64,000 nucleotides of DNA, from the IMG/VR virus record IMGVR_UViG_3300048016_000310. One strand, 5' to 3'. Position 1 is the first letter of the stretch. Each line of letters starts with the position of its first letter. The notes below the pieces were generated by a model, which searched no databases, had not been told where the DNA came from, and was given only the letters and a program-made list of their open reading frames with translations. A program made the position numbers and the translations under genes. Below, in pieces: positions 1,458 to 39,217 of the stretch. Source of the DNA: a virus (Duplodnaviria; Heunggongvirae; Uroviricota; Caudoviricetes).

Positions 1458-1840
1458 TGAAATTTAAAATTTGATAAATTTTTTATATGTTTATTAAAGC
1501 CTTCTAGAGTTTTAACCCTAGTATCTTCAACTTTTGGACTATTAGATATTGCTTCTTCTAAAAATCTATTTATTAGTCTACAACTTTCGAAAGCAGTGTC
1601 TTCACAAGAAAAAAAAGAAAGTTTTTGTAAACCTTCTTCAGTCAACCTTATACTTAACCATCTAGGTTTAAAAAACTTATAGACATGGTGACCTACATGT
1701 AACCTCAAGGGTTGCATAAAATTTAAAATTAAAGCAAAAGCATGTTCTTCAGTTCTTGGTAAACCTTGTTCTGAAATGTAAAAATTCATTTTTTGAACTA
1801 CACTAGAACAAATCCTTCTTATTTTTTCAGTTTCTAACAT
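1454..1840 (-). CDS. Putative C-terminal (body) segment of the tRNA nucleotidyltransferase. May be a split or frameshifted continuation of 1834..2538.
   Basis: 128-aa ORF immediately downstream of the CCA head-domain ORF, overlapping it by 7 nt. Its position is consistent with the missing body domain. No independent motif. Confidence 0.35.
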   Translation of the reverse strand: MLETEKIRRICSSVVQKMNFYISEQGLPRTEEHAFALILNFMQPLRLHVGHHVYKFFKPRWLSIRLTEEGLQKLSFFSCEDTAFESCRLINRFLEEAISNSPKVEDTRVKTLEGFNKHIKNLSNFKFQ

Positions 1841-11959: not shown

Positions 11960-13149
11960 ATGCTGTCACTAGGTATAATTTCATCGAAAGGCTCTATTAC
12001 AAAGTTGATAACCATTGGTGCTTTATCGGGATTATTTGGGTCTACTCTTAAAATTCTACCTAATGACTGAACTGCTGATTGTTTAGTAGAATCAAAAGAT
12101 TCTCTTAAAATACATTCTGCTGTTTCATCATCAAGCCCTGCAATAAGTTTGTAAACTGAAGAAATTTTAGCATTTTCAGATTCTAGAAATGCATTTAGAT
12201 TTTTAGTAGCAACTTTTGCTGATTGTTGTGAATGATATAGTAAACAGGTACTGTCAAGTTTAGCTATTTCTTTAGCTTTTGCAATACTTTTTGAAAATAA
12301 AATAGTTTTTTTGTACAAGTAAGGGTATAATTCTCGTAGATATACGAGCTTATTTTGAGCATTACTTAAAAGCCCAATTCTTTTTGTTCTAGTTCTAAGC
12401 CAGTTGAAGTTTATTCCTACTGCTTGAGGTTCTTGTGTTAAAGCTTTAATTTGTGCAGCACTTACTAAAGGTTTATCTACACCAAAGTTTGAAAAATAAG
12501 TTTTGCATCTGGATTCTTGTTCTGTAACAGCTTTATATAAAAGTTGTTCTTGTTTAGTAAAAGGTACATAAACATTGTATATTTCAAATTCTGGGACAAG
12601 TTCAAGCAAAGAAGCTTCTTGTAAAGAAATATGAAATTCATCTTTAAGTCCTATTGTTTGAAAAAATCGTAATTGTTCATTCTTTAAAGTAGCACTTAAA
12701 AATAACCTAAATTTAGGCTTAAAATTATGAATATTTGCAAAACCTGTTCCTTCTTTAGCTACTCCAATATGACATTCATCGACTATTAATAGTAGAGGAT
12801 TTTGTGGAGGCAGCTTACTATATGTATTTATTATGAAAATTTTAATATTTTCAATACCTTGTGTGTGAGTTTGCCACTGTTCTAACAAAGCATTTGTAGG
12901 CAAGACTATATGAATTTCTCCAAGCGATTGTTTTCGCAGAAGCTTTATAATCTTTAAAGCAAATACAGTCTTACCTGTAGCAGTAGCCCATGTACATAAA
13001 AGTTGTCCTTTAGTTTCAATAAAATACTTTATTCCAATATCTTGAATTAAATCTCTCTTCTTGAACTTATCAGGTTCTTTTTGTATTGCTTCTATATGGA
13101 TTTGTTGTAATTTATACTTCATAATGCACAATATATGTATTAGGTACAT
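11863..13149 (-). CDS. superfamily-2 DEAD/DEAH-box helicase
   Basis: Walker A CTWATATGKT, DEAD-like LLIVDECH, SAT-like motif LSAT. Confidence 0.7.
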   Translation of the reverse strand: MYLIHILCIMKYKLQQIHIEAIQKEPDKFKKRDLIQDIGIKYFIETKGQLLCTWATATGKTVFALKIIKLLRKQSLGEIHIVLPTNALLEQWQTHTQGIENIKIFIINTYSKLPPQNPLLLIVDECHIGVAKEGTGFANIHNFKPKFRLFLSATLKNEQLRFFQTIGLKDEFHISLQEASLLELVPEFEIYNVYVPFTKQEQLLYKAVTEQESRCKTYFSNFGVDKPLVSAAQIKALTQEPQAVGINFNWLRTRTKRIGLLSNAQNKLVYLRELYPYLYKKTILFSKSIAKAKEIAKLDSTCLLYHSQQSAKVATKNLNAFLESENAKISSVYKLIAGLDDETAECILRESFDSTKQSAVQSLGRILRVDPNNPDKAPMVINFVIEPFDEIIPSDSIWLQIGLRGLDSQFITLPELIQICKQKQEKNL

Positions 13150-13660
13150 AATCTGTTAACCATACATTATTTTCAGTAAGAAAAAATTTATAACCATCTT
13201 TATGCATTTCTAAAGCTTTTACTTCTAGTGCAATAGGGTCTCCATGTCTTAATCCTGTAAGTAAAGCTATTTGAAAATTTTCAGTTAAGTGTGCGGCATG
13301 TCTTTTTTGTTTTTTTATACCTTCTACTCTGATTAAATGCTCTACTTCTTTACAAGTACCATGATATAAAATCTTTGGAGGTACTGAAGGCTTTAACTGT
13401 AAATCTACATCAAATGAGTGTCCTTGCAAAGCTCTAATTTTTTTACTATCTTCTGAAAATTCAAATCTTTTTTTGTTGTTTGTAGCAACGATGTGCTTTA
13501 GTTTTTCTTCTGTTATCTGTAACTCCCTACAAATAAAAGAAGCATCAGCCCACCCAGTAGAATCTACTAAATGTGGCTGATGTCTTAAAATGTAACTTAA
13601 CTTAGTCATGAAATTGAACTTCACCGCATCTTTGTAAAGGCTGATACAGTGAAGGGTCAA
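13112..13660 (-). CDS. kptA: RNA 2'-phosphotransferase Tpt1/KptA (NAD-dependent). Likely start is MTKLSYILRH at ~13609.
   Basis: KLSYILRHQP, GWA, IRALQGHS, LYHGT and a GI...R...HVHL-like C-terminal region are all conserved Tpt1/KptA blocks. Confidence 0.75.
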   Translation of the reverse strand: MTLHCISLYKDAVKFNFMTKLSYILRHQPHLVDSTGWADASFICRELQITEEKLKHIVATNNKKRFEFSEDSKKIRALQGHSFDVDLQLKPSVPPKILYHGTCKEVEHLIRVEGIKKQKRHAAHLTENFQIALLTGLRHGDPIALEVKALEMHKDGYKFFLTENNVWLTDYVPNTYIVHYEV

Positions 13661-14657
13661 AAGTTTTTAAATCTTCAGTACAAGTTACATGGATATACGT
13701 AGAACAATCTATATTTAAGCCTTCTTTAATAAGCCTTTTATTTGTTTTTATTGCATACTCACAAAGGTCTAAGTTTATTGGAGCAACTTTAAAGGCTCCT
13801 TGAAACTCATTACTTACATTTGTTTCTCTAAGGTCAGGCTTTAATTCTACAGTTTCTTCAGAAAAAGGCCCAAAACCATGTCTTGTTTGATAAGCTCTGG
13901 TTACACAATGTAATTTTACATCAGAAAGATTATGTCCTCTAATTTTGTACTTTTTTAATAACGATACAGCATTTTTTACTGTTGTTGATGCATGAGTTAC
14001 ATTAGGAAAATAACCAAAATCTTCATCTAAATAAAAACCTTGATTTCCTTCAAATATAATATTAGAATAATAAGTAGGATTTCTATCATAAGTAGCTTTT
14101 ATCATCCATTTAGAAGCATCTAAAAACGCAGAAATTTCATTTTCTAAAAGCTCTGTATTGTTATAATATCTTCTAACAGACTCTAATTTTTGCAAAATAT
14201 GCCATTCAGGAGCAAATAAATCTGCAAAAATAAAACTTACTCCATCATTCATACGTTTTTGAGTAGTATGAATACCTTTTCCAGTAGTTGCACCTAAACT
14301 TTCCGAATTTTCTTGATTGGCTATAACATCAAAAGGAGTTATAATTGGGCAATTTTTATCTACAACCAATTCAGAAGACATATGAAATGTTTTTAAGATA
14401 AGGTCGCATTCTCTTTTTAACATTTCTGGAGATACTAAAACTTTTGGACCTATAAATCCAGCATTTCCAGTAGAAAAATTTGCTGGAATACTAGAACAAA
14501 TATGAGTTTTAGCATTTATTCTAATAGTATGTCCACAATTGGGTCCTCCACCAGTTCTTACAGCTGTACAATCTCTTAATTCATTTGCAAGTTTATTTAC
14601 AATACGACCTTTACCTTCATCTCCAAATCCAATACCAACTACTATATGTCCTACCAT
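13602..14657 (-). CDS. adenylosuccinate synthetase homolog, short archaeal/PurZ-like form (351 aa)
   Basis: GFGDEGKGRIV (P-loop GDEGKGK), RTGGGPNCGHTI (GxNAGHT), GATTGKGI (GTTGRGIGP), EGNQG (EGAQG). About 80 aa shorter than bacterial PurA. Confidence 0.8.
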   Translation of the reverse strand: MVGHIVVGIGFGDEGKGRIVNKLANELRDCTAVRTGGGPNCGHTIRINAKTHICSSIPANFSTGNAGFIGPKVLVSPEMLKRECDLILKTFHMSSELVVDKNCPIITPFDVIANQENSESLGATTGKGIHTTQKRMNDGVSFIFADLFAPEWHILQKLESVRRYYNNTELLENEISAFLDASKWMIKATYDRNPTYYSNIIFEGNQGFYLDEDFGYFPNVTHASTTVKNAVSLLKKYKIRGHNLSDVKLHCVTRAYQTRHGFGPFSEETVELKPDLRETNVSNEFQGAFKVAPINLDLCEYAIKTNKRLIKEGLNIDCSTYIHVTCTEDLKTFDPSLYQPLQRCGEVQFHD

Positions 14658-18068: not shown

Positions 18069-18551
18069 TTAAAGTTTTCCTAAAATACTATCGAGTTGTA
18101 GCTCAGTTTTGAAGCTTGGGTCCATAGACACCAATGTTCTTTTGTACTCAGCTAATTCTGCTTTTCTTGAAGCTAATTTCATTTTGGTAACACGAGTTTT
18201 TAAGTCTGTTTTCCAAACTGCAATTGGAGCAGATAACCATTTAGCTTCTGAGGTCAAGCCAAGCTCTTCAGCAGCTTTTACATCATAAGACTCTCTTTGC
18301 AAAAGAAAGCTATAAATTTCTTTAAGCTTTTCTTCTCCTGTAACAGTACGTATATCAACAGGTTGCCCTGTGGTACTAAATCTAAAGATACCATCTGTAG
18401 AGTAGTTTCCTACCTCTGCATTATGAATTTCTTTTTCTAATTCCTCTACTTTTGCGTATGCTGCTCTAATCTTAGCAGCTTGTGATACTGTTTTTGCCAT
18501 GTTATTTGTTATATTAATGTTATAGAAAATCTGATAGGGAAGGACTATCAT
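18069..18551 (-). CDS. hypothetical protein (likely start at internal MAKTV near 18503)
   Basis: 160-aa ORF. Coiled-coil-like middle. Confidence 0.4.
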   Translation of the reverse strand: MIVLPYQIFYNINITNNMAKTVSQAAKIRAAYAKVEELEKEIHNAEVGNYSTDGIFRFSTTGQPVDIRTVTGEEKLKEIYSFLLQRESYDVKAAEELGLTSEAKWLSAPIAVWKTDLKTRVTKMKLASRKAELAEYKRTLVSMDPSFKTELQLDSILGKL

Positions 18552-18553
18552 TG

Positions 18554-18660
18554 TCGGCCTGTTTGGATTCGAACCAAAGCTATAATTGTTCCTAGAAGTA
18601 TCATAGTTATTAAAATTAACTAAGAAATGACAATCGCCTCTACCACTGGGCTACAGGCCG
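18554..18660 (-). tRNA. tRNA-like gene (107 nt). Acceptor, D and T arms are canonical. The anticodon region carries a ~33-nt insertion.
   Basis: Acceptor CGGCCTG/CAGGCCG, D-arm GCCC-AGTGGTAG-AGGC, T-arm TTTGG-TTCGAAT-CCAAA. Putative anticodon stem ATTGT/ACAAT encloses 40 nt, including hairpin TAGTTA-ATTTTAA-TAACTA and the TGATACTTCTAGG tail. No canonical 7-nt anticodon loop could be read. Confidence 0.5.
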
Positions 18661-18664
18661 AATT

Positions 18665-19027
18665 TTACTTTAAGAATAAAGTAATTTTTTGTTTTTTTAT
18701 TAAAATGTTATCAAGATTATATGAGCAAAAATCTGAATCCCACAAAGCTATCCTGATTCCTTGCAAAAACTCATGTGAATCTTCAAATGTTTCTTCAAAT
18801 CTGTATTCAAATACTGGAGGAAGATAAGTTAATGTTAAACGATTTCTATCTTTAGAAAGCTCTTCCCATCTTTGCTGTTGCAGACTTTTGTCTTTTTCAT
18901 TAAACCAAGAGTTTGTTAATCTTCGATGTTTAAAGAAGTCTTGCATAGAAAAATCTTCTTCTCTTAAAGTAGGCATTATTGCTGCTATTTGCTCACCTAC
19001 TTCTAAACCTTTTTCATAGTCTGTCAT
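18665..19027 (-). CDS. hypothetical protein
   Basis: 120-aa ORF ending 4 nt from the tRNA-like gene. Confidence 0.4.
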   Translation of the reverse strand: MTDYEKGLEVGEQIAAIMPTLREEDFSMQDFFKHRRLTNSWFNEKDKSLQQQRWEELSKDRNRLTLTYLPPVFEYRFEETFEDSHEFLQGIRIALWDSDFCSYNLDNILIKKQKITLFLK

Positions 19028-19042
19028 AAATAAAAATTGTTA

Positions 19043-19113
19043 AAATAAAAATGAGATTCGAACTCATATCTCTGAATTCTTAGTTCAGTGTAATACCATT
19101 ATACTATATTCCC
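19043..19113 (-). tRNA. tRNA-like gene (71 nt), possibly degenerate. Clean anticodon arm (loop CTAAGAA, anticodon AAG) but poorly paired acceptor stem.
   Basis: D-arm GTAT-AATGGTA-TTAC, anticodon arm CTGAA-CTAAGAA-TTCAG, T-arm ATGAG-TTCGAAT-CTCAT. 5-prime GGGAATA versus 3-prime TTTTATT pairs at only 5 of 7 positions. No encoded CCA. Confidence 0.4.
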
Positions 19114-19147
19114 AAAGCGGAAAATAGAAGTAATTTTAACATAAAAG

Positions 19148-19258
19148 GGGAGATGATGGGATTCGAACCCACATCTGGTCATTTAACAATTGATAGAAGT
19201 AACTTAGTCATAAAAATTGACCAAGTAATTCCCGCTCTACCATTAAGCTACACCTCCC
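19148..19258 (-). tRNA. tRNA-His-like gene (G-1 / C73) with a ~36-nt insertion in the anticodon region
   Basis: Extra 5-prime G opposite discriminator C. Acceptor GGAGGTG/CATCTCC, D-arm GCTT-AATGGTA-GAGC, T-arm GTGGG-TTCGAAT-CCCAT. Middle 60 nt contain hairpin TTGGTCA-ATTTTTA-TGACTAA followed by GTTACTTCTATC. No GTG anticodon identifiable. Confidence 0.5.
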
Positions 19259-19324
19259 ATAAAGAAATTGACTGTCTAAGTTTTTTATCCACTAAAATTA
19301 GGAGTAAGACAGTCATAAAGATTA

Positions 19325-19873
19325 TTACATTAATAGAAGAAGCCTTCTATCATATGAATGAAATTCGAATTCGAATGTACAACAATACTCTACTATTTTT
19401 GAATCTTCAAGAGTGTCATGCATTTTAACAACTTCTGAAAGCTGCATTAATTGGGAAGGCTTTCCTACTGGTTTTTCAAAAGACATAGCTTTTAAACTAC
19501 TTTGACCTAAAGAGTCATAAGTTTGAGGAACTCCTCTGATATGTGCATTCACAGAAAGATCTGCTTTATACACAGCAAGAGAGTTATTTGTTTGAGTCCT
19601 ATATGCAATATAAATAGATTTGTTTTGAAAAACTGCTTGTTCTAGTTCTGTTTTACACCCTTTTGGAAGACTGGTTCTTACATATTGCCAAGCAAATTCA
19701 GGCAACACTATAACAAAAGCATCACAAGTGTTAATCCAATTTTTCTCTTTATCACCATATGTTGTACCTCTTTCCCAAAATACAGCTGCATTACCAGCAT
19801 CTTGTAGACGTTTTTGAACTAAATCAAGCTGCCATTGTGGAATTGACATCGGACAAGAAATGTAACATTTCAT
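19325..19873 (-). CDS. hypothetical protein
   Basis: 182-aa ORF. Confidence 0.4.
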   Translation of the reverse strand: MKCYISCPMSIPQWQLDLVQKRLQDAGNAAVFWERGTTYGDKEKNWINTCDAFVIVLPEFAWQYVRTSLPKGCKTELEQAVFQNKSIYIAYRTQTNNSLAVYKADLSVNAHIRGVPQTYDSLGQSSLKAMSFEKPVGKPSQLMQLSEVVKMHDTLEDSKIVEYCCTFEFEFHSYDRRLLLLM

Positions 19874-20250
19874 GCTCCAAAGTAAGTTTCAAATGACTTT
19901 ACTTTACATTCTAACTCAAGCTCGGCAAGCTTAAGGTCATATTCTAAGTCTATAATCTCTTTGAACCGAGCTGTGGCATCTTCTCTAGTCATGAGCTTTA
20001 AGCCTAGATTATGGTCAGTTTTTAAAGTAAACTCTTTTTTGTCTGCAATTTTGTCACGAAGACTTTCTACTTTGTCTTGCAAAGGAGAGATTACTGTTTC
20101 AACAAGTTTTCTCTTCACAGATGAAACATACTCTGAAGCCCTTTCTTGAGGGGTTTTGTTATTTACTAACAATTTAAAGGCTTCTGTGCCTTTTAGGTTT
20201 TCTGGTGTTTTGATAGACATAATTTTACAATTTAATAATAAAAAAAACAA
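19870..20250 (-). CDS. hypothetical protein
   Basis: 126-aa ORF. Coiled-coil C-terminus. Confidence 0.4.
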   Translation of the reverse strand: MFFLLLNCKIMSIKTPENLKGTEAFKLLVNNKTPQERASEYVSSVKRKLVETVISPLQDKVESLRDKIADKKEFTLKTDHNLGLKLMTREDATARFKEIIDLEYDLKLAELELECKVKSFETYFGA

Positions 20251-20725
20251 TCATCGGAGACCCCGATTGATATTCTACATAGCTTATAGTTCTAAATCCT
20301 AGATGTTTGAAAAGCAGAGCATAACTCTGAGGTCTGTTGCTTATATCTATAAACTTTTGAATTGTTCTTGATTCTCGTGCAGCTAAAAATGTTAAAACTA
20401 ATTTAGAGTTTGGTTTAACATTTCTTAAAAAATTTAAAAGTTTAAAAGGAAAAGGGCCACAGAAATCTAAGAACATACCATCATACAAAGAAGATTCTGC
20501 ATTTAATACATTCCCACAATTTAATTCTACGTTAAGAGGAGCTACTAATTGTTGCTGTTTAAACACTACTCTATTTTGTTCGAAACAAACTACTTTTGCA
20601 GTTTTTGCTAAAAATTCTTCTAAGTCAAAATAAAGATTAGGTAGTGTTAAAACATTTTTACAACTTTTTAGAAAATTTTTTACAAATTCTCTAATTTGTA
20701 TTTTATGGTCAGTAGGTTGATACAT
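20225..20725 (-). CDS. hypothetical protein (weak resemblance to a SAM-dependent methyltransferase fold)
   Basis: 166 aa. MFLDFCGPF resembles MTase motif I (LDxxCGxG) but is not conclusive. Confidence 0.35.
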   Translation of the reverse strand: MYQPTDHKIQIREFVKNFLKSCKNVLTLPNLYFDLEEFLAKTAKVVCFEQNRVVFKQQQLVAPLNVELNCGNVLNAESSLYDGMFLDFCGPFPFKLLNFLRNVKPNSKLVLTFLAARESRTIQKFIDISNRPQSYALLFKHLGFRTISYVEYQSGSPMIVFFIIKL

Positions 20726-20726
20726 A

Positions 20727-21029
20727 TTACCAAGAAAATTCTATTCCTTGAATAACAGCTCTATTACTTGGAAATTCCATTTTAGTACCATTGACTTTTA
20801 TTTCATTTGGTTCTAAATTTGGCATCATTATCATTTGTAGTGGACTAAAGTCTGGCTGCTTCATAAGCTCTTCAACTTTTTTTGGCTTATGCTTATAATA
20901 TTGATATAAGTTAAAAATAGATTGAGAACCTATATTAAACTTTATTGCAAGTTTAATTCTTTCTTGTTTGTTTTTTGTAGCTAAAAGTTCAGCTAATTGT
21001 TCATCTGTAAGCACTCTCATTCTTGCCAT
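20727..21029 (-). CDS. hypothetical protein
   Basis: 100-aa ORF. Confidence 0.35.
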   Translation of the reverse strand: MARMRVLTDEQLAELLATKNKQERIKLAIKFNIGSQSIFNLYQYYKHKPKKVEELMKQPDFSPLQMIMMPNLEPNEIKVNGTKMEFPSNRAVIQGIEFSW

Positions 21030-21067
21030 GATTTTGAAATAAATTTAATAATTAAAAATAAAAAAAG

Positions 21068-21176
21068 CAGTGGGGCTAGGATTCGAACCTAGGTCTCTCT
21101 CGTGACAGGAGTAGAAGTAGCTAAATTATAAAAATTAATCAAGCAATAAGCGTATTAGCCACTATACGACCCCACT
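21068..21176 (-). tRNA. tRNA-like gene (109 nt) with a ~36-nt insertion in the anticodon region
   Basis: Acceptor AGTGGGG/CCCCACT, D-arm GTAT-AGTGGCTA-ATAC, T-arm CTAGG-TTCGAAT-CCTAG. The middle contains hairpin GATTA-ATTTTTA-TAATT followed by TAGCTACTTCTACTCC. Confidence 0.5.
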
Positions 21177-21252
21177 ATAAAAAATTGACTGTTTAAAGGT
21201 TTTTTCAAATAGAATTTTTAGAAGTAAGATAGTCATTATAAAGTGTTCATTA

Positions 21253-21696
21253 TCAAGAAGTTATGACTAATAATCCTTTATCAAATTCCCAATGACAATT
21301 GGGACATAAAAAGACTAAGTTCTTGATATTGTTAATTTCTCCTATTAAAGTTTCTTTAGAAAAGGTTCCTATTCCTTTAATATGACAACATTCCACATGT
21401 TTGTCATAGCCACAATTGTAGCATTCTTTAACATAATATTCAGATGCAATAGCTCTTGCTTGCATTCTTATTTTCCCATACTTGTTTTGTGGGGAAGAAG
21501 AGCTAGAAGAATTTTCTTCTAATGTTTTTAAATGTGCAATACTTCTTTTAGGATTTTCTTTATTTACACAAACATTACAATACTTTCTTTGAGAAGGAGC
21601 TTCTGCATTACAATTAATACATAAGTATTTTTTACCATCTCTTTTAAAAGTGTTTTTGTATTGTTTCCAATTTGTTCTTTTTACTTTGTCTTTCAT
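21253..21696 (-). CDS. HNH endonuclease
   Basis: ECCHIKGIG...NNIKNLVFLCPNCHWEFDKG (H-N-H core with a flanking Cys pair), plus an N-terminal CxxC...CxxC zinc finger. Confidence 0.65.
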   Translation of the reverse strand: MKDKVKRTNWKQYKNTFKRDGKKYLCINCNAEAPSQRKYCNVCVNKENPKRSIAHLKTLEENSSSSSSPQNKYGKIRMQARAIASEYYVKECYNCGYDKHVECCHIKGIGTFSKETLIGEINNIKNLVFLCPNCHWEFDKGLLVITS

Positions 21697-21753
21697 AGTA
21701 CAAAGATAAAAGAAATATGCCTAACTTACAAATAAATTAAGCATATTTTATAG

Positions 21754-21862
21754 TGGGGATGCCAGGAATCGAACCTGGAACAGCTGCTCCTGATGCTAGA
21801 AGTATCACAGTTATTAGAATTAACTGAGAAAATAAACTGTGTTACCATTACACCACATCCCG
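21754..21862 (-). tRNA. tRNA-like gene (109 nt) with a ~36-nt insertion in the anticodon region. The insertion is near-identical to that in 18554..18660.
   Basis: Acceptor CGGGATG/CATCCCC (C1 mismatch), D-arm GTGT-AATGGTA-ACAC, T-arm CCAGG-TTCGATT-CCTGG. Insert TCAGTTAATTCTAATAACTGTGATACTTCTAGC versus TTAGTTAATTTTAATAACTATGATACTTCTAGG in the first gene, with a compensatory T-A to C-G change in the hairpin stem. Confidence 0.5.
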
Positions 21863-22024
21863 ATGAATAAACAAATTAACTAATCATTTTTACTACAACC
21901 TTTGTTTTTTAGAAGTAGATTAGTTATAAGACAAATTAAGAAATAACATATACCAGCTATTTATAATATAATTTGTTTTTTAATTAGGAACTTATAGAGG
22001 TCACATTATAAGTATAATATAAAG

Positions 22025-22109
22025 TAGAGATAAATGGACTCGAACCACTAACCTTTTTACAGCAAACTAAATAGACTATAAAATGCTCTACCAATTGAGC
22101 TATATCTCC
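22025..22109 (-). tRNA. tRNA-like gene (85 nt) with an enlarged (19-nt) anticodon loop, i.e. a ~12-nt insertion
   Basis: Acceptor GGAGATA/TATCTCT, D-arm GCTC-AATTGGTA-GAGC, anticodon stem TTTTA/TAAAA enclosing TAGTCTATTTAGTTTGCTG, T-arm AGTGG-TTCGAGT-CCATT. Confidence 0.45.
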
Positions 22110-22171
22110 AAGATAAAATTGATTAAGTAAATAATTTTTAATCAAAAATAGAAGTAACTTAATCATAATAG

Positions 22172-22242
22172 TGCAGAACCTAGGATTCGAACCTAAAGTT
22201 TAAAAATTCCCTTTTACGTGTTGCCATTACACCACTTTCTGC
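22172..22242 (-). tRNA. tRNA-like gene (71 nt). Anticodon loop appears 6 nt (GGGAAT). Isotype unresolved.
   Basis: Acceptor GCAGAAA/GTTCTGC (one mismatch), D-loop TAATGGCA with GG, anticodon stem TAAAA/TTTTA, T-arm TTAGG-TTCGAAT-CCTAG. No encoded CCA. Confidence 0.45.
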
Positions 22243-22320
22243 AAAAAAATTGACTACCAATGGTTATTGTAACAGCCTGTGAGGCTGTGGTTTTTAGAAG
22301 TATGGTAGTCATAAAGTTTA

Positions 22321-22554
22321 TTATGCTATGATTTCGCCAATTTTATCAGCTATTCTAGCATTTTTACCAATAAGCTCTTGAGTTTGAACTTTTTGAAGTT
22401 CTAATCTTTCAATTTCAGCAGTAGTTTTTGCTTGTTCTTCAACAAGTTCAGTATTTGCTTCAAGTAAAAGTTTTTGAGCATTTTCAAAACCTGATATAGC
22501 TTCTGATGCTTTTTGTCTAGCTGTTTTAGGTGCTACCTCTTTGTTAAACCACAT
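22321..22554 (-). CDS. hypothetical coiled-coil protein
   Basis: 77-aa ORF. Confidence 0.35.
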   Translation of the reverse strand: MWFNKEVAPKTARQKASEAISGFENAQKLLLEANTELVEEQAKTTAEIERLELQKVQTQELIGKNARIADKIGEIIA

Positions 22555-22581
22555 AATAGAATTTTTTACAAATGTACGAAA

Positions 22582-23547
22582 TTATTTTCTTTGAAGCAAC
22601 ATTCCAGGCATAGAACCAAAAACATTATTAGTACCCCAAGGAGAAGTTTTAGCTTCTGCCCATTTTCTCTCAGTTTCTGCTCTATACAGTTCTAGCATTT
22701 TTGGTTGTGATAAAATATCATTCTTTTTGGCTGTAAGTATAGCTGCATCATAATCACCTTGAGCATTAGCTACTTTAGTTTTGTTAACTGCTAAAGCTTT
22801 TACCTCATTAAGTTCTGCATTCTGAGTCTCTTGAATAGTCTTTATTTTATCTGAGATAATTTTAGCTAAGTCCTCTGAAGGTCTAATATTTGTCTTCATT
22901 TGAGTTACTTCTAAAAATTCTCCAAGATTTTTATTAACTTCTGAATAAATCTCAGCTTCAAACTTTTGCTGGTTATTAAAAATGTAATCAGGCTCATATC
23001 TGTTTGCAACATGATTAGCAGAACCCATTATAGATGTTTTTGCCCAAGTATCTAAAACATGAGGTAACCCTCCTTGTTTAAACATTTGTCTAACTTCTAC
23101 AAAAAATCTATTGGCATTTTTAGGTTTTACTTTAACATTAAATGTAAGATGTATAGGACAAGGATATCCACCTTTTACAGTAAGAGCACTTTCACCATAA
23201 TCAACATTTTTTGCATCAGTTTCAATCTCATGAATATTCTGAGTGTAAGAATTATAAATCTGATAACCAGAAGCAAACTCTACACCTTGAATACCTCTAG
23301 AAGTGCCAGTAAGATTTTCTTTAAGCCCCACTGCACCAGAATCTATTCGTTCAATAGTAAAAGGTTGGAAAGTAATTACAAGAGCTACAACAATAATGCC
23401 AAAGAGATACTTCGAATTAACACTTAAAACTTTTGAAGAATAAGGTTTATCATCTTTTACTTCATAAGAAATAATTCCTTTTTTAAAAAGAATCCAACGT
23501 AGAGCTACAAACAAAACAAGTAAGAATAATAAAATAATAGTAAACAT
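22582..23547 (-). CDS. SPFH/Band-7 (prohibitin/flotillin-like) membrane protein
   Basis: N-terminal TM helix, central beta-rich domain, C-terminal Ala/Glu/Lys-rich coiled coil (EVKALAVNKTKVANAQGDYDAAILTAKKND...RAETERKWAEAK). Confidence 0.4.
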   Translation of the reverse strand: MFTIILLFLLVLFVALRWILFKKGIISYEVKDDKPYSSKVLSVNSKYLFGIIVVALVITFQPFTIERIDSGAVGLKENLTGTSRGIQGVEFASGYQIYNSYTQNIHEIETDAKNVDYGESALTVKGGYPCPIHLTFNVKVKPKNANRFFVEVRQMFKQGGLPHVLDTWAKTSIMGSANHVANRYEPDYIFNNQQKFEAEIYSEVNKNLGEFLEVTQMKTNIRPSEDLAKIISDKIKTIQETQNAELNEVKALAVNKTKVANAQGDYDAAILTAKKNDILSQPKMLELYRAETERKWAEAKTSPWGTNNVFGSMPGMLLQRK

Positions 23548-23564
23548 ATTAATAAAATTTGGTT

Positions 23565-23608
23565 TCTAAAAATGAGGAGCTACTCTCGTAACTCCTCGGT
23601 TTGAAATT
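23565..23608 (-). terminator. hairpin GAGGAG(N12)CTCCTC followed by a TTTT run on the minus strand
   Basis: Seen directly in the 23548-23771 intergenic region, about 18 nt upstream of the 22582..23547 start. Confidence 0.35.
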
Positions 23609-23771
23609 TGTGAACATCCAGTTAGAAAAGAATATCCTTTTCTGCAACCCTTTAAGGAGATATTTCCCATAGTACAATTTTTTAAATTAACTAACAAGCA
23701 TTTGGGGTTACCAGATGATTCGTTACTTGTATTTTGTTAGAAGTATGTTAGTTATGAAAAATTGACAAAAA

Positions 23772-24314
23772 TTATTTCTTTACGTAAAGTCTTTGAAGAA
23801 AATAAATGCTTTTAGGCAATTCTAAAATACTAACTCCTAGCTTGTTTTCAGGATGATAAGGATTTGGTTCTATACTTTTTACAGTACCTAACAATCTTAG
23901 TTTAGAAGGACTTACTTTTTTATAAACCACATCACCAGGTGCTAATTCTTTCTGAATAAATAAAGATTTATGTAGGAAAGTATTATTAGTTGGTCTAAAA
24001 GGTTTATCACCATTTCCTTTATCTTCATTACAAGTTTTACACATTGGTTGTAGATTATCTAAAGTATTTGGTCCTCCTTTAGATTTGGGTAAGATATGAT
24101 CTATAGTAAATGCATTACCTTCATCATCATACAAATCTAAATGTTTACCTCCACGTTTATCTTCTCCTAATGCAAGATGAGTTCCTACTTTTCCACAGGA
24201 AACACAAGTACATCCTTTATAAAAAAATACTTGTAATCTCCTGTGTTTTTTAAAATTTTCTAAAGCAGCTAAAGGTAAAGTTTTTAAAATCTTATACCCA
24301 AAGTTTTGTCTCAT
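23772..24314 (-). CDS. HNH endonuclease
   Basis: CVSCGK...FTIDHILPKSKGGPNTLDNLQPMCKTCNEDKGN (DH...N...C..CN..K HNH core). Confidence 0.7.
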   Translation of the reverse strand: MRQNFGYKILKTLPLAALENFKKHRRLQVFFYKGCTCVSCGKVGTHLALGEDKRGGKHLDLYDDEGNAFTIDHILPKSKGGPNTLDNLQPMCKTCNEDKGNGDKPFRPTNNTFLHKSLFIQKELAPGDVVYKKVSPSKLRLLGTVKSIEPNPYHPENKLGVSILELPKSIYFLQRLYVKK

Positions 24315-26404
24315 CCTATTAGCTCTAAAGTTTTTTGATATGAATATCTAAAGTCTTCCTCTTTGAAGAAAGTTTCAGCTTCATCCAAAGAACTAACTTG
24401 GCCTCTAGCTTCTACATGTAATCGAATTAAATCGTAGACTGAAAGCTTAGGTGGCTCACAATAAGGCTTTAACTCATTTAACAAAGCAGAAGCATCACCA
24501 GAACCAACAGTTCTTTGAAAGATATTCCAGTCTAAGTCTAAATGAATATACTCTCTTGTTTCCAAGTCATACATTCCTACTAAACAATACTGAGCTTCTG
24601 AGTTTAATCTCATTGCATTTGTTACAGAAGAAGGAGTCCATGAAGAGTTTACCAAAGCATCATCTCTTTCCATAAAACCTGTATAGCAATCATTTAAAGA
24701 AGAGAATGGTTTTTGTTGAAAATTATGCAAAACCATGACAAAGTACTTAAATCCAAAAGCAACTGCTTTCTCTACATCAATATCTACATATTCTGCACAA
24801 GCACCTCTTCTACGTCTTACATCTCCTGAATAACAACCATAGTTAGCTCTTTTTTCTCCATTAAATCCAAACTGTGTAGCTCTTTTACCTTCTGCTAAAA
24901 GAAAACCATGCATATCAATATCTTCTGAACCTTGAACATCATTCCAATGAACAAATGGACGAATAACTCTTTTAGTTACACCCATAGCAATTCTTTGCCC
25001 TCTCACAACTGGAACAAGAGATTCTGACATTGACCTCATATTGGTAGGTAGTGGTATGTTTTTAAGATTTTCATCTATCCAACATTTACCCATAGCTGGA
25101 AGTTCAGCATATTTACGAGCTAAAGCATCCCAAATAAATCCACTACAAGTATCAACAACTTCTTGAGACAAAGCTTTCAAATCTGGCAAAGGAGTTCTCT
25201 GCCTAGCACCTTTAATAAAGATACTTCTATTTTGAACAGGCTTAAGTCTTTCTTGAAAATGTCCAAAAGCTTCAAACAAAACTTTAGAAGAAGTCTTATC
25301 TACATTCTTCAAAAGAGCATCAAAGATGATGTTAATCTTCTTAGGGTTCTTACGAACAAGTTCATCAAGTCTACGAATAAATACTCCAGGTCTCTCTGCA
25401 AGTCTTAAAACTCCAGCTTCAAAAGAGGCTTTAAAATCACTCTCTACCAATGATTGCCATGTTCTAACTTTAGGTACACCAGTAGGTTTACTTTTCCGTA
25501 ATTGATTACGAAGAGTAAAGGCAGCTTGGAAAGTCTTAGGATGAGTCTCTTTATGAGCTTGCACAACAAGTACTTCAAATAATCTAATCCATCTTGAGTA
25601 CTTTGAACCTTGTTGCATATCTCTTATATCAAGATTAGAAGACTCAAGCAATTGAAGAACTCTAAGTTTTTGAGCAGAATTAAGCTTAAATCGAAATGCT
25701 TTACGCTCTTCTTCTCTAGCAGCCCATTTAGGTCCTTGTTTCTTTAAAGATTTAGGAACAGCAGGTAATGAAACATCTCCACCAGAAAATCCAACAGCTA
25801 CTCTAAGACAATCAGTTACAGTCTTCACTGTGAAAGTAGGACATAAAGCAGCTATAACAGCTAAGTTTTCTTTGAATGGAATATCTTTAGGATACCTACA
25901 TTCATAGCCTGACTCTACCCACCACTTGATAACTTTAGTATCAGTAGGAGTTAAAGAGTTTCCTACACTAAGTAAGCGAGTGAAAATTGCTAGAAATTCA
26001 TCTTCAGTACAAGGATACACTTCTTTGTAAGAAACATGCTCAAAACCTTCAATCTTTTGTTTACCATAAGGCTTAAAGGTTTTTACACCCCAGTAATGAA
26101 GTAATTGATTCATGTATAATTCCTGCAAGGATTGAGACATTACATCTTGAGGGAAATTTTTGTACAACGATTGAAAATCGAGCTTTCCTCCTGTTTGAAT
26201 CTTGAGCCAATTTACAGTTTCATTATAGAACTTAATGATTTCAGCTTCTTCTGCTTTTTGAAGCATTTCAAATGCCTCCTGCGTTAGGAGAAATCCGTAG
26301 TGCATCAATTGTCCTTGACAAGACATAGCTAAAGCTAGATTATTCTGGCCCGAATCTGTAAAATTGACTAGAAATTTTTGTAATAATATCGTGTTCTTAG
26401 TCAT
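24311..26404 (-). CDS. large protein with C-terminal TerD-like domain
   Basis: 697 aa. C-terminal segment DIDMHGFLL...FGFNGEK...YSGDVRRRRGACAEYVDIDV resembles TerD-family blocks (DLDLSAFLL...VFFNQ...HSGDNxxGxGDGDDExIxID). Confidence 0.4.
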   Translation of the reverse strand: MTKNTILLQKFLVNFTDSGQNNLALAMSCQGQLMHYGFLLTQEAFEMLQKAEEAEIIKFYNETVNWLKIQTGGKLDFQSLYKNFPQDVMSQSLQELYMNQLLHYWGVKTFKPYGKQKIEGFEHVSYKEVYPCTEDEFLAIFTRLLSVGNSLTPTDTKVIKWWVESGYECRYPKDIPFKENLAVIAALCPTFTVKTVTDCLRVAVGFSGGDVSLPAVPKSLKKQGPKWAAREEERKAFRFKLNSAQKLRVLQLLESSNLDIRDMQQGSKYSRWIRLFEVLVVQAHKETHPKTFQAAFTLRNQLRKSKPTGVPKVRTWQSLVESDFKASFEAGVLRLAERPGVFIRRLDELVRKNPKKINIIFDALLKNVDKTSSKVLFEAFGHFQERLKPVQNRSIFIKGARQRTPLPDLKALSQEVVDTCSGFIWDALARKYAELPAMGKCWIDENLKNIPLPTNMRSMSESLVPVVRGQRIAMGVTKRVIRPFVHWNDVQGSEDIDMHGFLLAEGKRATQFGFNGEKRANYGCYSGDVRRRRGACAEYVDIDVEKAVAFGFKYFVMVLHNFQQKPFSSLNDCYTGFMERDDALVNSSWTPSSVTNAMRLNSEAQYCLVGMYDLETREYIHLDLDWNIFQRTVGSGDASALLNELKPYCEPPKLSVYDLIRLHVEARGQVSSLDEAETFFKEEDFRYSYQKTLELIG

Positions 26405-30154: not shown

Positions 30155-31113
30155 TAGTTAAGAGTTAATAGAAAGCCAATTGTAAAGTTGGCATCCCAGT
30201 CAAAAATGTATTTTGTAGGTATCTCTTGCACCATTGCTGAATAAATGTTTAAGCCAGATTTAAGCTTTACATCATCACCAAAAGAATATTCTTCTGGAGC
30301 TTTTAGAAGCGTAAAACGCTCTTCTGCATTTCTAGATTCTTTTGCAAGTTTAAATGGAACTCCACCAATGATAAAGCAATTCTCCCTTTGAGAAGTAGGA
30401 ATTGTTTTTAAAGCAACTTTTATAGCTGTAGCAACTTCATCATCTGTTTTTCCATCTTGATAATATTTAGCACCTGGAGCTTCTACTGAAAATGGATTAC
30501 CATTTTTATATGAAGTAATCTTAGTATTTCCAGAACCAATATCTACAACAAATGAATTAGAACGATAAGACTTAGGCAGTAAAGCTTTTAATGCATACTT
30601 AGCCTCTTGGTCAGCAGTAACTCTATTTACTACATAACCCATATCTTCTATAGCTTTAGCAATTAATTCAGTCTTTTTATTCTTTAAAGCACCTGATGAC
30701 ATAACGAAATGTGCATTACGACCTGCTACACCTCTTTCAAACATCTTGGCAAGATACTTTTTTATTCCTGTTTGTACATCAAGAGTAGTAATAAACCCTT
30801 CATAAGCTAAAGATTCACCAAACTCTTTTGATATTAATTCCCAATTATCTTGTTTATCAACTTCTACTACAAATGAGTTGAATCCTGAAGCACCAACTTC
30901 AATTACTCCAAGTTTTTTACCGTTAATAGGTCTTTCTGTTTGAATGTTAATTGAAGAGGCTGTAGATGAAGGGATTAGATCAATATTCTCTATTGTAAGA
31001 ACTTTCTCTGGCTCAGAAGGCAAGACATCTGGATGTTTATAAGTATAATACTTAAATCCAGCTAGTGCTAAGACTAGCAATACTACGATTCCTAAAACGA
31101 TTTTCTGTTTCAT
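30154..31113 (-). CDS. ASKHA-superfamily (actin/Ppx-GppA-like) ATPase-fold protein with N-terminal TM anchor
   Basis: Phosphate-1/2-like motifs GVIEVGASGFNSF and VVDIGSGNTKIT. N-terminal hydrophobic helix. Confidence 0.4.
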   Translation of the reverse strand: MKQKIVLGIVVLLVLALAGFKYYTYKHPDVLPSEPEKVLTIENIDLIPSSTASSINIQTERPINGKKLGVIEVGASGFNSFVVEVDKQDNWELISKEFGESLAYEGFITTLDVQTGIKKYLAKMFERGVAGRNAHFVMSSGALKNKKTELIAKAIEDMGYVVNRVTADQEAKYALKALLPKSYRSNSFVVDIGSGNTKITSYKNGNPFSVEAPGAKYYQDGKTDDEVATAIKVALKTIPTSQRENCFIIGGVPFKLAKESRNAEERFTLLKAPEEYSFGDDVKLKSGLNIYSAMVQEIPTKYIFDWDANFTIGFLLTLN

Positions 31114-31553
31114 AATTCTGATCTGATTTTCATTAATAATAAACCTAATTTATTTTCACCAACATTATCGTAAATTGAGACTCCCCAAATTTTATCATTC
31201 CAATTATTCCACTCAATGATTTGTGAATCACCTGTGGCTTTTAACTGAGATTTCCAAGGGTCTCTCGAAAACTTAATACGTAGAGCTTTTTCCATTACAG
31301 ATTCTTTAACCTGTTCCCAATCTTGTCTTAATAGGACACTTCTTCCAAGTCTTTTTGATTCTGAAGGAGTTACTTTTCTAAAAGAATATTGTACTGTAGG
31401 TTCTATACTTTTTTGAGCTTGAAAATAATTCTCTACTGAAGGCCATTGTACACCATCAATTATTAAAGGTGTAATTTCCATGTTTGAGAACCAATTATAA
31501 ATCCATTTTCCTCTGTACGAAAATTCTTCTGGTTTATGTTCTTGCCAATTCAT
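31110..31553 (-). CDS. NADAR-domain protein (YbiA-like)
   Basis: GKWIYNWFSNMEITPLIIDGVQWPSVENYFQAQK...SKRLGR matches the NADAR signature (FSNF...PF..DG..Y.S.EHYFQA.K...AK.LGR). Confidence 0.65.
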   Translation of the reverse strand: MNWQEHKPEEFSYRGKWIYNWFSNMEITPLIIDGVQWPSVENYFQAQKSIEPTVQYSFRKVTPSESKRLGRSVLLRQDWEQVKESVMEKALRIKFSRDPWKSQLKATGDSQIIEWNNWNDKIWGVSIYDNVGENKLGLLLMKIRSEL

Positions 31554-38404: not shown

Positions 38405-39217
38405 TCATACATTACCACCTGCTAAAATTGCTTCTTTTTGTGTTGCATACACAGCCATGAATCCAGAATTATGTCTAAATGTCTGATTGTCTGATGCAGC
38501 AATAGGATAGTTCTCTGAATCTCTTGAAATAAGGTTAAAGCCTCCTCTTGGATTAGGAGTAACCAAAAAGATAAGACCTTTTGCTTCTGCAAACTCCTTC
38601 CAACCAAGTAAGATGTTAGAGTCTTTGTTTATTGCTACTACACCTTCTACAGGTAATTTATTAAACAAAAGCTCATCCTTAAAGTACTTCTCAATATCAC
38701 TAATCATACGAGATATGATAGCTATGGAAAGCTCTAAAGCTTGAGCAAAATCATCACATCCTCTGATAATAGAGTTAAACTCCCAGGAATCCCCACCTCC
38801 AGGCACAATACCTGTATCAATGTGCGATATTCTATTGAAAAGCAACTCTTGAAGTTTCCCAAAGAGCCTTTCATCCTTCTGCAAATCCCACAAGTAGTTC
38901 ATCATTAGAAGATTAGAAGCCCCTAGAAGAGCATCCTGATGATGGTCAAGGTTAGATTTACCATAATCAAGACTCCTACCTATGTCAAGAACTAAAATTG
39001 AAGGGTCTATAAGTTCTTCTGGAGTGATAACAAACTTCCTTTCTACAGAAATGTCAATATCTCCTCTCAAAATAACCTTTCTATCCTCCTTGGGATTTGA
39101 AAGGTTAGAAGAGATTACAAGCTCTAGTTTATGCACAATTGCAAATAAAGCAATAGCTGATACTTCATCAGCATGCCATGCTCCTGCATGAGTTATAATT
39201 TTTTTAATCTGTGTCAT
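38405..39217 (-). CDS. MYG1/UPF0160-family metal-dependent hydrolase (putative 3'-5' RNA exonuclease)
   Basis: N-terminal IITHAGAWHADEVSAIALF matches the MYG1 signature THxGxFHADEalA. Length is 270 aa. Confidence 0.5.
   Translation of the reverse strand: MTQIKKIITHAGAWHADEVSAIALFAIVHKLELVISSNLSNPKEDRKVILRGDIDISVERKFVITPEELIDPSILVLDIGRSLDYGKSNLDHHQDALLGASNLLMMNYLWDLQKDERLFGKLQELLFNRISHIDTGIVPGGGDSWEFNSIIRGCDDFAQALELSIAIISRMISDIEKYFKDELLFNKLPVEGVVAINKDSNILLGWKEFAEAKGLIFLVTPNPRGGFNLISRDSENYPIAASDNQTFRHNSGFMAVYATQKEAILAGGNV

Follow-up and report, generated by a model that had tools for sequence, protein, structure and literature searches.

We describe a recurring RNA element in the transfer RNA (tRNA) cluster of a tailed phage (Caudoviricetes; IMG/VR record IMGVR_UViG_3300048016_000310), analysed here as a stretch of 64,000 nucleotides, the window, out of a ~160-kb genome. 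The motif that marks this element is one strand-specific folded RNA module in two permuted forms, occurring as spacer units and as inserts within tRNA genes; with more than 100 instances across dozens of uncultured phage contigs, it is a well-supported, lineage-wide structured RNA class of which we found no description. Our preferred reading, held with slightly less than even confidence, is that it is an RNA-level recognition module for excision, which would punctuate the transcript of the tRNA region and mark introns for splicing; we prefer it because it is the simplest account that covers both topologies. One module links intron-like inserts, spacer punctuation and tRNA-like cargo. If it is indeed a splicing or processing signal, it would imply a new RNA-processing enzyme or ribozyme, could supply a physiological substrate for phage Tpt1/KptA and cREC, and would account for the tRNAs that standard tools miss in these phages; any other function would still leave a new structured RNA class for Rfam-type catalogues.

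Scanning the whole window confirmed an earlier claim, made in a sequence-only reading of this DNA, that a motif recurs at the tRNA-like genes: the word TACTTCTA has 17 occurrences where 5.2 are expected and no shuffle exceeded 10, and TATGAC-N5-TACTTCTA with up to two mismatches has 12 matches, all on the minus strand of the tRNA region between 18593 and 23756. That reading had placed GAC 6-8 nt from TACTTCTA; the correct spacing is N5, and an N7 pattern gave no enrichment. Copies in which xAU, 8 nt and UACUUCUA are accompanied by a complementary 8-mer and AAUU number 11, all within the minus-strand tRNA cluster (18593-23756), with none in the rest of the 64-kb window. Searching the window with a covariance model built from spacer-type copies returned six hits at E<0.01; these all fall on the minus strand, from 19259 to 23753, and the next best hit has E=0.31.

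Each copy is organised around a helix, P1, which measures 8-9 bp and reaches as much as 10 bp in distant relatives. Its sequence is free and its ends are fixed: at one end xAU stands 5′ of strand B and AAUU(U) stands 3′ of strand A, and at the other the invariant UACUUCUA lies immediately 3′ of strand B. Seven of the 11 copies are spacer units with the order UAU-B-UACUUCUA-loop-A-AAUUU (the DNA form starts with (T/C/A)AT), and four are circularly permuted inserts inside four long tRNA genes, with the order linker-A-AAUUUUUAU-B-UACUUCUA (in DNA, A-AATT(T/C)T(T/A)AT-B-TACTTCTA). Strands B and A pair at 8/8 positions in six spacer units and at 6/8 in the seventh (21182-21237). Six spacer units were folded by minimum free energy: four gave a 9-bp stem, 23690-23760 gave a 7-bp stem, and 21180-21243 did not form it; in the predicted folds the T preceding B pairs with the first A of AATTT. 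The cargo enclosed by the spacer units can be as little as ~16 unconserved nucleotides, or it can be a T-arm or an entire tRNA-like gene, and most of it showed no conserved features when units were compared.

All seven spacer units lie on the minus strand, and their arm pairs are complementary and differ in sequence. The unit at 23684-23756 (CAT-AACTAACA-TACTTCTA-41 nt loop-TGTTAGTT-AATTT; 8/8 pairs; 26.2 bits, E=0.007) is placed between an HNH gene and a conserved non-coding segment and has an orthologous unit in L040, a related locus. The unit at 22247-22313 (TAT-GACTACCA-TACTTCTA-35 nt loop-TGGTAGTC-AATTT; 8/8 pairs; covariance model E=1.6e-4) stands directly 5′ of the tRNA-like gene 22173-22241; its loop has a hairpin of its own, and the 9-bp stem is present in its minimum-free-energy fold (z=-6.6). 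A third unit, 22116-22167 (TAT-GATTAAGT-TACTTCTA-20 nt-ACTTAATC-AATTT; 8/8 pairs; E=1e-5), separates that tRNA-like gene from the tRNA at 22025-22109, while 21873-21928 (TAT-AACTAATC-TACTTCTA-24 nt-GATTAGTT-AATTT; 8/8 pairs; E=1e-6) lies 5′ of the tRNA at 21754-21862. The top covariance model hit, at 50.9 bits, is the unit 19265-19317 (TAT-GACTGTCT-TACTCCTA-21 nt-AGACAGTC-AATTT; 8/8 pairs), 5′ of the tRNA at 19148-19257. Pairing is long-range in 19034-19143 (TAT-GTTAAAAT-TACTTCTA-...-ATTTTAAC-AATTT; 8/8 pairs), whose loop encloses the whole tRNA-like gene 19043-19113. The weakened helix belongs to 21182-21237 (AAT-GACTATCT-TACTTCTA-...-AAACAGTC-AATTT; 6/8 pairs), 5′ of a tRNA-Asp; this unit was outside the covariance training set and still scored 28.5 bits (E=0.002).

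These units revise the inventory of the sequence-only reading in several respects. The six copies it listed are real, and it overlooked two more, a unit at 21873-21928 and an insert copy at 18593-18625, the latter just outside the range it covered. Two of its copies, 22145-22176 and 19118-19140, had been taken for half copies; their partners exist, ACTTAATC at 22121-22128 and ATTTTAAC at 19039-19046. Its copy at 21186-21243 corresponds to the unit at 21182-21237, which is present and pairs only 6/8 here, the L040 orthologue pairing 8/8 (GACTATCT/AGATAGTC). Finally, it had described a stem followed directly by a T-run: further T's do follow, in variable number, the invariant AATT(T) comes first, and GTCAATTT taken alone shows no enrichment (7 against 6.2).

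Relatives were taken from the loci around homologues, hundreds in number, of a 697-residue protein encoded beside the cluster (24311-26404, minus strand); a single-protein search of IMG/VR with this protein found nothing, and an alignment-based search worked. The module stands next to or inside tRNAs in relatives whose 697-residue protein is 94, 53, 52, 50, 48, 44, 40 and 39% identical, and its flanks are invariant down to ~30% identity of the neighbouring protein. Across these loci UACUUCUA and AAUU are unchanged, and the helix sequences are wholly different yet complementary (for example, GTGCAACT/AGTTGCAC, GATTGTGT/ACACAATC and GTTTGGCT/AGTCAAAC). The AAUU persists whether it forms a hairpin loop or an open strand, and the permuted, tRNA-internal topology was found in every clade examined. 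The 8-nt arms differ in almost every copy, those copies that share arms being mostly orthologous or duplicated units. A duplication at 7620-7990 of L073 repeats in tandem an intron-bearing tRNA-Arg(UCU) and the 5′ half of a unit; units may serve as recombination points.

Pairing was scored without selection on pairing by taking every exact TACTTCTA in nine sources, 60 on the sense strand and 11 antisense. An AATT-anchored partner with at least 7/8 pairs accompanied 42 of the 60 sense sites (32 of them perfectly), whereas the partner rate was 6% when B was swapped between units and 0/11 at antisense sites. In an alignment of 34 spacer units, compensatory changes were seen at all eight P1 pairs (100 cells), and sliding the partner by 1-3 columns reduced pairing to 24-42%; because these units were chosen for pairing, the percentage paired in the alignment is high by construction, and the case for a selected stem rests on the covariation and on the unselected test. 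In P1, 17 G-U pairs stand against 3 A-C, and the selected structure therefore lies on the tRNA-sense strand, which points to RNA. A strict scan gave 56 hits with none antisense, and the covariance model, run on 83 related loci, hit 33 times, always on the sense strand; a loose scan (one mismatch, seven pairs) gave equal numbers of hits on both strands. That covarying stems are selected had been proposed beforehand, with covariation in homologues set as the test, and this covariation holds.

The module is lineage-restricted rather than widespread, because exact DNA patterns searched in IMG/VR gave either unpaired or single copies: a 26-nt pattern had three hits, all without pairing, and a 21-nt pattern had 33 hits, all single copies, one of them the related contig L033. 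Blastn of the region against 50,697 phage records gave no match, and near-identical contigs occur in several JGI and Logan metagenomes.

New covariance model hits in related loci led us to a wider motif, NNNGG-C-(T/C)A(T/C/A)-N8-10-TACTTCT(A/G), with 91 distinct sites, all on the sense strand. The exact 5-nt complement of NNNGG lies 25-90 nt downstream at 71 of the 91 sites (78%), against 11% in a swapped control. These strands define an outer helix, P0 (NNNGG...CCNNN), with xAU and AAUU-like strands (AAUUU, UCUUU, GAUUU and others) as an internal loop between P0 and P1. Units bearing P0 form tandem arrays, free of open reading frames (ORFs), directly after the 697-residue gene; by manual parsing, L059 holds six units in ~500 nt. 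In the units of distant relatives that were examined, the 3′ arm is not followed by a T-run. A recurrent subtype (L059 10515-10600, L070 6107, L078 10507, L090 610) carries as cargo a T-arm (GGTTCGAATCC) and a capped acceptor-like hairpin, and so resembles a permuted top half of a tRNA. At ~13945-14047 of L043, the module substitutes for the D arm of a tRNA-like RNA and encloses an anticodon-like hairpin.

The 5′ half of the wider family can also be read as a near-linear word of ~27 nt, NNNGG-C-TAT-N9-TACTTCTA, co-directional with genes at all 91 sites, and this invites comparison with T4-type promoter-early stem-loop (PeSL) cassettes, stem-loops that hold an early sigma-70 promoter and stand ahead of small ORFs alone. 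Such cassettes, as Arbiol and co-workers are said to have proposed in 2010, punctuate small genes in hyperplastic regions and favour shuffling; like the module, they are repeated intergenic cassettes with a conserved word in a stem-loop and arms that differ between copies. On this view UACUUCUA, together with GGC-TAT upstream in distant relatives, would be a phage-directed RNA polymerase promoter element in a stem-loop, the stem-loop existing only in read-through RNA, where it would insulate or terminate the upstream transcript. The location of units 10-30 nt upstream of tRNAs and protein-coding genes, their tandem arrays, and the AATTT and T's that follow the 3′ arm in the window's clade all agree with this, and a conserved middle-promoter motif of crAss-like phages is sometimes found upstream of tRNA genes (bioRxiv 10.1101/2020.03.07.982082).

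We consider this account unlikely. Two helices covarying across the motif, with their G-U wobbles on the sense strand, are more than a promoter needs, and copies within tRNA genes, where the 3′ exon begins 0-5 nt past UACUUCUA, cannot sensibly be promoters; moreover, the motif is missing from the other 58 kb of the window despite dozens of genes that need promoters, and the 3′ arms of distant relatives lack T-runs. A sigma-70 scan using the tool's consensus (-35/-10 hexamers spaced by 16-18 nt) matched at no unit (32 matches in the region against 26.7 +/- 6.1 in shuffles), and an intrinsic-terminator scan detected none of the units, finding six terminator-like sites in the region against 2.2 expected from shuffles, among them a canonical-looking one at 23574-23597 on the minus strand. 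Units are in any case unlike intrinsic terminators, which have a G+C-rich stem, a loop of 3-8 nt and a U-tract following at once: their loops are 24-97 nt long, their stems are A+T-rich and AA stands ahead of the T's. The module thus differs from a T4-type PeSL in having no sigma-70 -35/-10 pair of hexamers, in occurring within tRNA genes, and in possessing a second covarying helix and an internal loop. The sequence-only reading had held that the motif is not a generic terminator and combines a selected stem with a sequence-specific site, and on this point it is supported, the units failing both the terminator and the sigma-70 consensus.

The permuted form of the module is found in the tRNA genes themselves. 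The Rfam tRNA model recognises seven genes in the cluster, all on the minus strand (18554-18660, 19043-19113, 19148-19257, 21068-21176, 21754-21862, 22025-22109 and, weakly, 22173-22241), of which ARAGORN called only 19043-19113 and 22171-22242; it misses four of the eight tRNA genes of the window, namely all four insert-bearing genes. These four carry inserts of 33-38 nt in or near the 5′ strand of the anticodon stem, and the motif is present in every one, as had been noticed from the sequence. In tRNA-Asp(GUC) at 21068-21176, a 37-nt insert (21112-21148; TATT-GCTTGATT-AATTTTTAT-AATTTAGC-TACTTCTA) lies at position 28/29, and its excision in silico leaves a 72-nt sequence that ARAGORN calls tRNA-Asp(gtc), with the predicted exon-exon junction ...ACGCT|CTCCTGTCAC.... 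A 38-nt insert at position 29/30 of 21754-21862 (21797-21834) gives the anticodon CAG upon excision. The 38-nt insert at 27/28 of 19148-19257 (19194-19231) forms a 9-bp local hairpin in the minimum-free-energy fold, and its removal yields tRNA-Asn(gtt); this gene had been called His-like, and it does have G-1/C73, although after excision its anticodon is GUU. Lastly, an insert of at least 33 nt in the anticodon loop of 18554-18660 (18593-18625), whose boundaries are the least certain of the four, leaves what ARAGORN calls tRNA-Gln(ttg).

All 11 sequences spliced in silico, from the window and its relatives, are called tRNAs by ARAGORN (Asp, Leu, Asn, Gln, Trp, Met, Gly, Leu, Arg, Asn and Met), a result that is a consistency test and no proof, being partly circular in that junctions were chosen to restore stems. 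The spliced lengths equal those of intron-less tRNAs in related phages, and in at least nine tRNAs the exons, once joined, form a perfect anticodon stem of 5 bp and a loop of the standard 7 nt: in the window, Asp (CT|...|CTC-CTGTCAC-GAGAG) and 21754-21862 (GTT|...|GC), and elsewhere Trp of L040, Met, Gly and Leu of L043, Met of L044, Arg(UCU) of L073 and Asn of L059. Insertion points are 27/28, 28/29 (the commonest), 29/30, 31/32, 33/34 and perhaps 35/36, all of them 5′ of or within the anticodon; the canonical 37/38 is never used. The 3′ junction falls 0-5 nt past UACUUCUA and the 5′ junction 0-7 nt ahead of strand A. Across all loci there are 26 distinct cases, none antisense, in which a GGTTCGAATC-type T-loop lies within 14-45 nt downstream of UACUUCUA; inserts of complete tRNA genes account for most of them, and a few are spacer units that enclose a T-arm only.

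The tRNA at 21754-21862 has a counterpart at 14400-14511 of L040 with a near-identical body, whose in-silico spliced form is Trp(CCA); the anticodon loops read AUCAGGA (CAG) and AUCCAAA (CCA), a difference that suggests an anticodon switch or decay. The tRNA at 22025-22109 has a different anticodon-loop insert of ~12 nt (TAGTCTATTTAGTTTGCTG), without UACUUCUA. At about the same place in the L040 cluster (14577-14649; orthology was not shown) stands an intron-less amber-suppressor tRNA with anticodon CUA; other relatives also have CUA or UUA suppressor tRNAs, and the ORFs of the window read through with the standard code. As for the two tRNA-like genes, 19043-19113 has a poor acceptor stem and the anticodon AAG, and 22173-22241 has a 5-nt 'anticodon loop' and scores 26.7 bits, under the Rfam threshold.

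The inserts bear directly on whether the module is a selfish element in hairpin-prone DNA, MITE-like (miniature inverted-repeat transposable element) or intron-like, with no role in RNA processing and with the interrupted tRNAs as decaying pseudogenes. The set of insert-bearing tRNAs does differ between relatives, the insertion points range from 27/28 to 35/36, some of the host tRNAs look degenerate, two HNH endonuclease genes lie in the cluster, and the L073 duplication shows a tRNA and unit being copied together. Against these stand arms that differ yet remain complementary and flanks that are invariant to ~30% protein identity, which indicate purifying selection on structure and not recent copy-and-paste; neither target-site duplications nor lost exon nucleotides were seen at the inserts; and orthologous inserts are kept in the window and in L040 within tRNAs whose acceptor, D and T arms are intact. 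With arms that differ, flanks that are constant and exons that continue without duplication, the copies also do not conform to MITEs or repeats derived from insertion sequences, which keep their terminal inverted repeats alike from copy to copy and make target-site duplications, and we regard the selfish-element account as very doubtful.

Three options had been offered for the motif from sequence inspection: a processing signal, a phage promoter, or the footprint of a small mobile element. A processing signal fits best, because the same helix and flanks appear in two permuted topologies, the G-U pairs are on the sense strand and excision restores tRNA calls by ARAGORN. The footprint of a recent mobile element is disfavoured, arms being different and target duplications not seen, and a promoter cannot explain helices that span the motif or copies internal to tRNAs, though it could be an additional role.

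The excision we favour would proceed as follows. A factor, most likely a phage-encoded protein endonuclease, would recognise the helix and its fixed flanks and cut on the cargo or exon side, immediately upstream of strand A and immediately downstream of UACUUCUA. At spacer units, where the xAU/AAUU end would be open and the UACUUCUA end closed by the cargo, cutting would split the polycistronic transcript of the tRNA region into individual RNAs. In tRNAs, where the xAU/AAUU end would be closed and the UACUUCUA end would open into the tRNA, the insert would be freed as a hairpin, the two exons would be kept together by the tRNA fold, and sealing would follow by RNA-repair-type ligation, to which the Tpt1/KptA, cREC, nucleotidyltransferase and NAD-salvage enzymes of the window might contribute. 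Cleavage, ligation and the enzyme are inferred here. RNase III is an unlikely reader on general grounds, the helix having only 8-9 bp. In its most specific form, the proposal is of a phage-own, sequence-specific system in which an endonuclease or minimal ribozyme reads P1 and UACUUCUA/AAUU, cuts spacers and removes mobile mini-introns from the anticodon stems of tRNAs, and phage repair enzymes (a cyclic-phosphate enzyme, a ligase and Tpt1) rejoin the exons; this would be a new tRNA-splicing route beside group I self-splicing and BHB/EndA (bulge-helix-bulge) splicing, the first in a bacterial virus, and we advance it tentatively, as possible and somewhat doubtful. To our knowledge, protein-dependent tRNA splicing is regarded as archaeal and eukaryotic, bacteria and their viruses having only self-splicing group I introns in tRNAs.

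Several genes of the window would suit such repair. These are a Tpt1/KptA RNA 2′-phosphotransferase (13112-13660, minus strand; Pfam PTS_2-RNA, E=7.6e-34), which is a possible last step of heal-and-seal ligation, a cREC cyclic-phosphate-processing domain (E=8e-19), and a Pfam-matched PolyA_pol-head nucleotidyltransferase (1834-2538, minus strand), possibly of the CCA-adding type. NADAR, NAPRTase and MYG1-like genes are also present, the set being located at 31110-31553, 7314-9056 and 38405-39217, all on the minus strand. The fungal/plant heal-and-seal pathway, a functional analogy only, uses Tpt1, a Trl1-type ligase, a kinase and a cyclic phosphodiesterase; of this set Tpt1/KptA and a cREC domain are present, with no ligase or kinase recognised in the window. 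Tpt1/KptA may be linked to the module, and Tpt1 relatives were located on contigs other than the module-bearing loci; the link between the repair enzymes and the module is only suggestive, because many large phages carry enzymes of this sort, ordinarily interpreted as counter-defence.

A number of observations weigh against excision, beyond the partial circularity of the in-silico test. First, Pfam recognised neither an RNA ligase nor an RNA endonuclease among the 88 ORFs scanned in these 64 of ~160 kb. Second, the ordinary interpretation of phage KptA is that of an anti-defence repair enzyme (PMC7824862), and Tpt1 relatives occur in many unrelated large phages. Third, the distances from junction to motif and the positions in the tRNA (27/28 to 35/36) vary, which is awkward for a simple ruler-type enzyme. 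Fourth, some spliced tRNAs are odd: 18554-18660 has A33 instead of U, 19148-19257 has an A-A mismatch at 31-39, and the anticodon of 21754-21862 differs between close relatives. Finally, insert helices are more degenerate than spacer helices (17 non-pairs in 128 cells).

The module might instead be a non-cleaving binding platform or decoy that recruits a protein to the tRNA cluster, such as an RNA-repair scaffold of the SPFH/Band-7 kind, a Nus-type antitermination factor or a titrated host anticodon nuclease, with the insert-bearing tRNAs as scaffolds that are never spliced; several 'spliced' tRNAs do have non-canonical anticodon arms. An SPFH/Band-7 gene (22582-23547; Pfam) lies inside the cluster and also in L040, and an ORF in the same position in L043 (12926-13801) was read as SPFH from sequence alone; SPFH modules have reportedly been placed, by Burroughs and Aravind in 2016 (NAR), in RNA-repair systems linked to a novel tRNA-like RNA. 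In addition, UACUUCUAA loosely resembles boxA, UACUUCUAAA resembles an anticodon loop (UCU or CUA), and some units have a T-arm and a capped hairpin as their sole cargo, or stand in for the D and anticodon arms in a tRNA-like RNA. By contrast, the perfect anticodon stems and 7-nt loops rebuilt by the exons of at least nine tRNAs are expected of introns and not of scaffolds, most spacer cargo has no conserved features, and in the available loci the presence of no candidate binding protein tracks that of the module. A platform or decoy is improbable in our view. Anticodon-loop mimicry, T-loop mimicry and boxA similarity were each compared by eye, and none was convincing.

The excision module that we favour was compared with known RNA classes. 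Rfam 15, searched at E up to 5 across 18400-24000, hit only with tRNA models, and the units in L040, L042-L044, L047, L067, L073 and L076 likewise matched no Rfam family beyond tRNA. The closest analogy is to the archaeal bulge-helix-bulge (BHB) motif cleaved by EndA. The BHB serves tRNA introns and rRNA spacers, with the exons joined by RNA ligase, and in certain archaea (Thermoproteales) introns appear spread among tRNAs and positions. Like the module, it is used in several topologies, including tRNAs (in the canonical position and in others), polycistronic spacers and split or permuted tRNAs. It differs in that it consists of two 3-nt bulges and a 4-bp helix read by shape and not by sequence, whereas the module belongs to a bacteriophage and has a helix of 8-10 bp, invariant words (UACUUCUA, AAUU, xAU) and inferred cut sites at variable distances. 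No 4-bp helix with 3-nt bulges could be drawn by manual inspection for the Asp, Met, Gly and Arg cases, whose type of insert has junctions flanking an 8-9 bp helix with linkers of 0-7 nt on one side and 8-13 nt on the other, and no EndA-like or tRNA_int_endo protein, nor any endonuclease family other than HNH, was found among the 88 ORFs scanned in these 64 of ~160 kb. The mechanism would work like BHB/EndA without being a member of it.

Among phages, the nearest precedent is in the Lak megaphages, whose 'enigmatic' short non-group-I tRNA introns have no Rfam match and no known mechanism of removal (Devoto et al., 2019; PMC6784885). Both are short, non-group-I introns in phage tRNA genes; those of Lak are 79-114 nt long, are predicted at 37/38, form a tRNA-like minihelix with a T-arm and have no matching spacer elements described (PMC6784885), and UACUUCUA was not found in their sequences (Table S6, PMC6784885). 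Literature searches returned no paper with the motif of the module and no short phage tRNA introns other than those of Lak. Bacterial group I introns also interrupt tRNA genes near the anticodon; they exceed 200 nt, have a P1-P9 core and lie in the loop, whereas the module inserts are 33-41 nt long and lie mostly in the 5′ strand of the anticodon stem. The window inserts, at 33-38 nt and with no Rfam Intron_gpI hit at E up to 5, are too small for that class. A trans-acting guide complementary to UACUUCUA was also sought, and the sole candidate that looked intergenic by the ORF list (38281) looks coding.

Small phage ribozymes (hammerhead, twister, pistol and hatchet) share with the module a size of ~50-100 nt, circular permutation and a tandem or clustered arrangement in non-coding regions. 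Circular permutation is typical of small self-cleaving ribozymes. The module could then be a new member, its conserved single-stranded nucleotides forming a catalytic core, and be used in the way the family uses its hatchet and pistol: a pistol (63.8 bits by Rfam) at 2990-3051 of L043 and a hatchet (56.2 bits) at 720-889 of L067 lie a few kb from tRNA/unit clusters in related loci. Some 13 invariant unpaired nucleotides beside covarying helices in two permuted topologies are consistent with this, and the products of self-cleavage (2′,3′-cyclic phosphate and 5′-OH) would suit repair of the cREC/Tpt1 type. We nevertheless judge a self-cleaving ribozyme to be very unlikely, since the module is far simpler, with one helix and AU-rich conserved nucleotides in the window's clade, unconserved loops, and no conserved pseudoknot, second helix or tertiary pairing identifiable there; removal of an intron would require two cuts at variable distances, and no known ribozyme family matched at E up to 5.

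Protein candidates for a reader of the excision module were sought beside the clusters. The 697-residue neighbour (AlphaFold pLDDT 86.8) has a helical N-terminal part and a TerD-like C-terminal beta domain as its only recognised domain, with no nuclease or ligase fold, and it is present in relatives with compact arrays of intron-less tRNAs; it is probably not the reader of the module. No protein specific to module-bearing loci was found in the 8-10 kb flanks examined. Together with a 160-residue protein (18069-18551, minus strand), the 697-residue protein flanks the tRNA cluster on either side, and the two are conserved beside tRNA clusters in ~100 viral contigs, some of them from phages that have 20-25 tRNAs as well as a transfer-messenger RNA.

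The window as a whole is phage-like and A+T-rich (32% G+C), with genes for a portal, a large terminase, and capsid and tail-ring proteins that are weakly crAss-like; genes run on the minus strand to ~41.5 kb and on the plus strand beyond. On the weak crAss-like markers, the host is probably a member of the Bacteroidota. The two HNH endonucleases among the Pfam matches of the window are free-standing genes (21253-21696 and 23772-24314, both minus strand) interspersed with the tRNAs and units, and the corresponding sites in L040 hold other ORFs (one of 278 residues, and one encoding a DUF7873 protein). Downstream of the unit at 23684-23756, the sequence-only reading had allowed for a 35-residue ORF and had noted a hairpin and T-run at 23565-23608. 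The hairpin corresponds to the canonical terminator-like site at 23574-23597; the ORF loses its ATG and acquires indels in the 94%-related phage, and the segment is better read as non-coding. This segment (23598-23683, minus strand; ~90-110 nt), between the unit and the terminator-like hairpin, had no Rfam match. It is highly conserved with the 94%-related L040, more so than the loop of the unit itself, and may represent a small RNA whose 3′ end is set by the canonical terminator.

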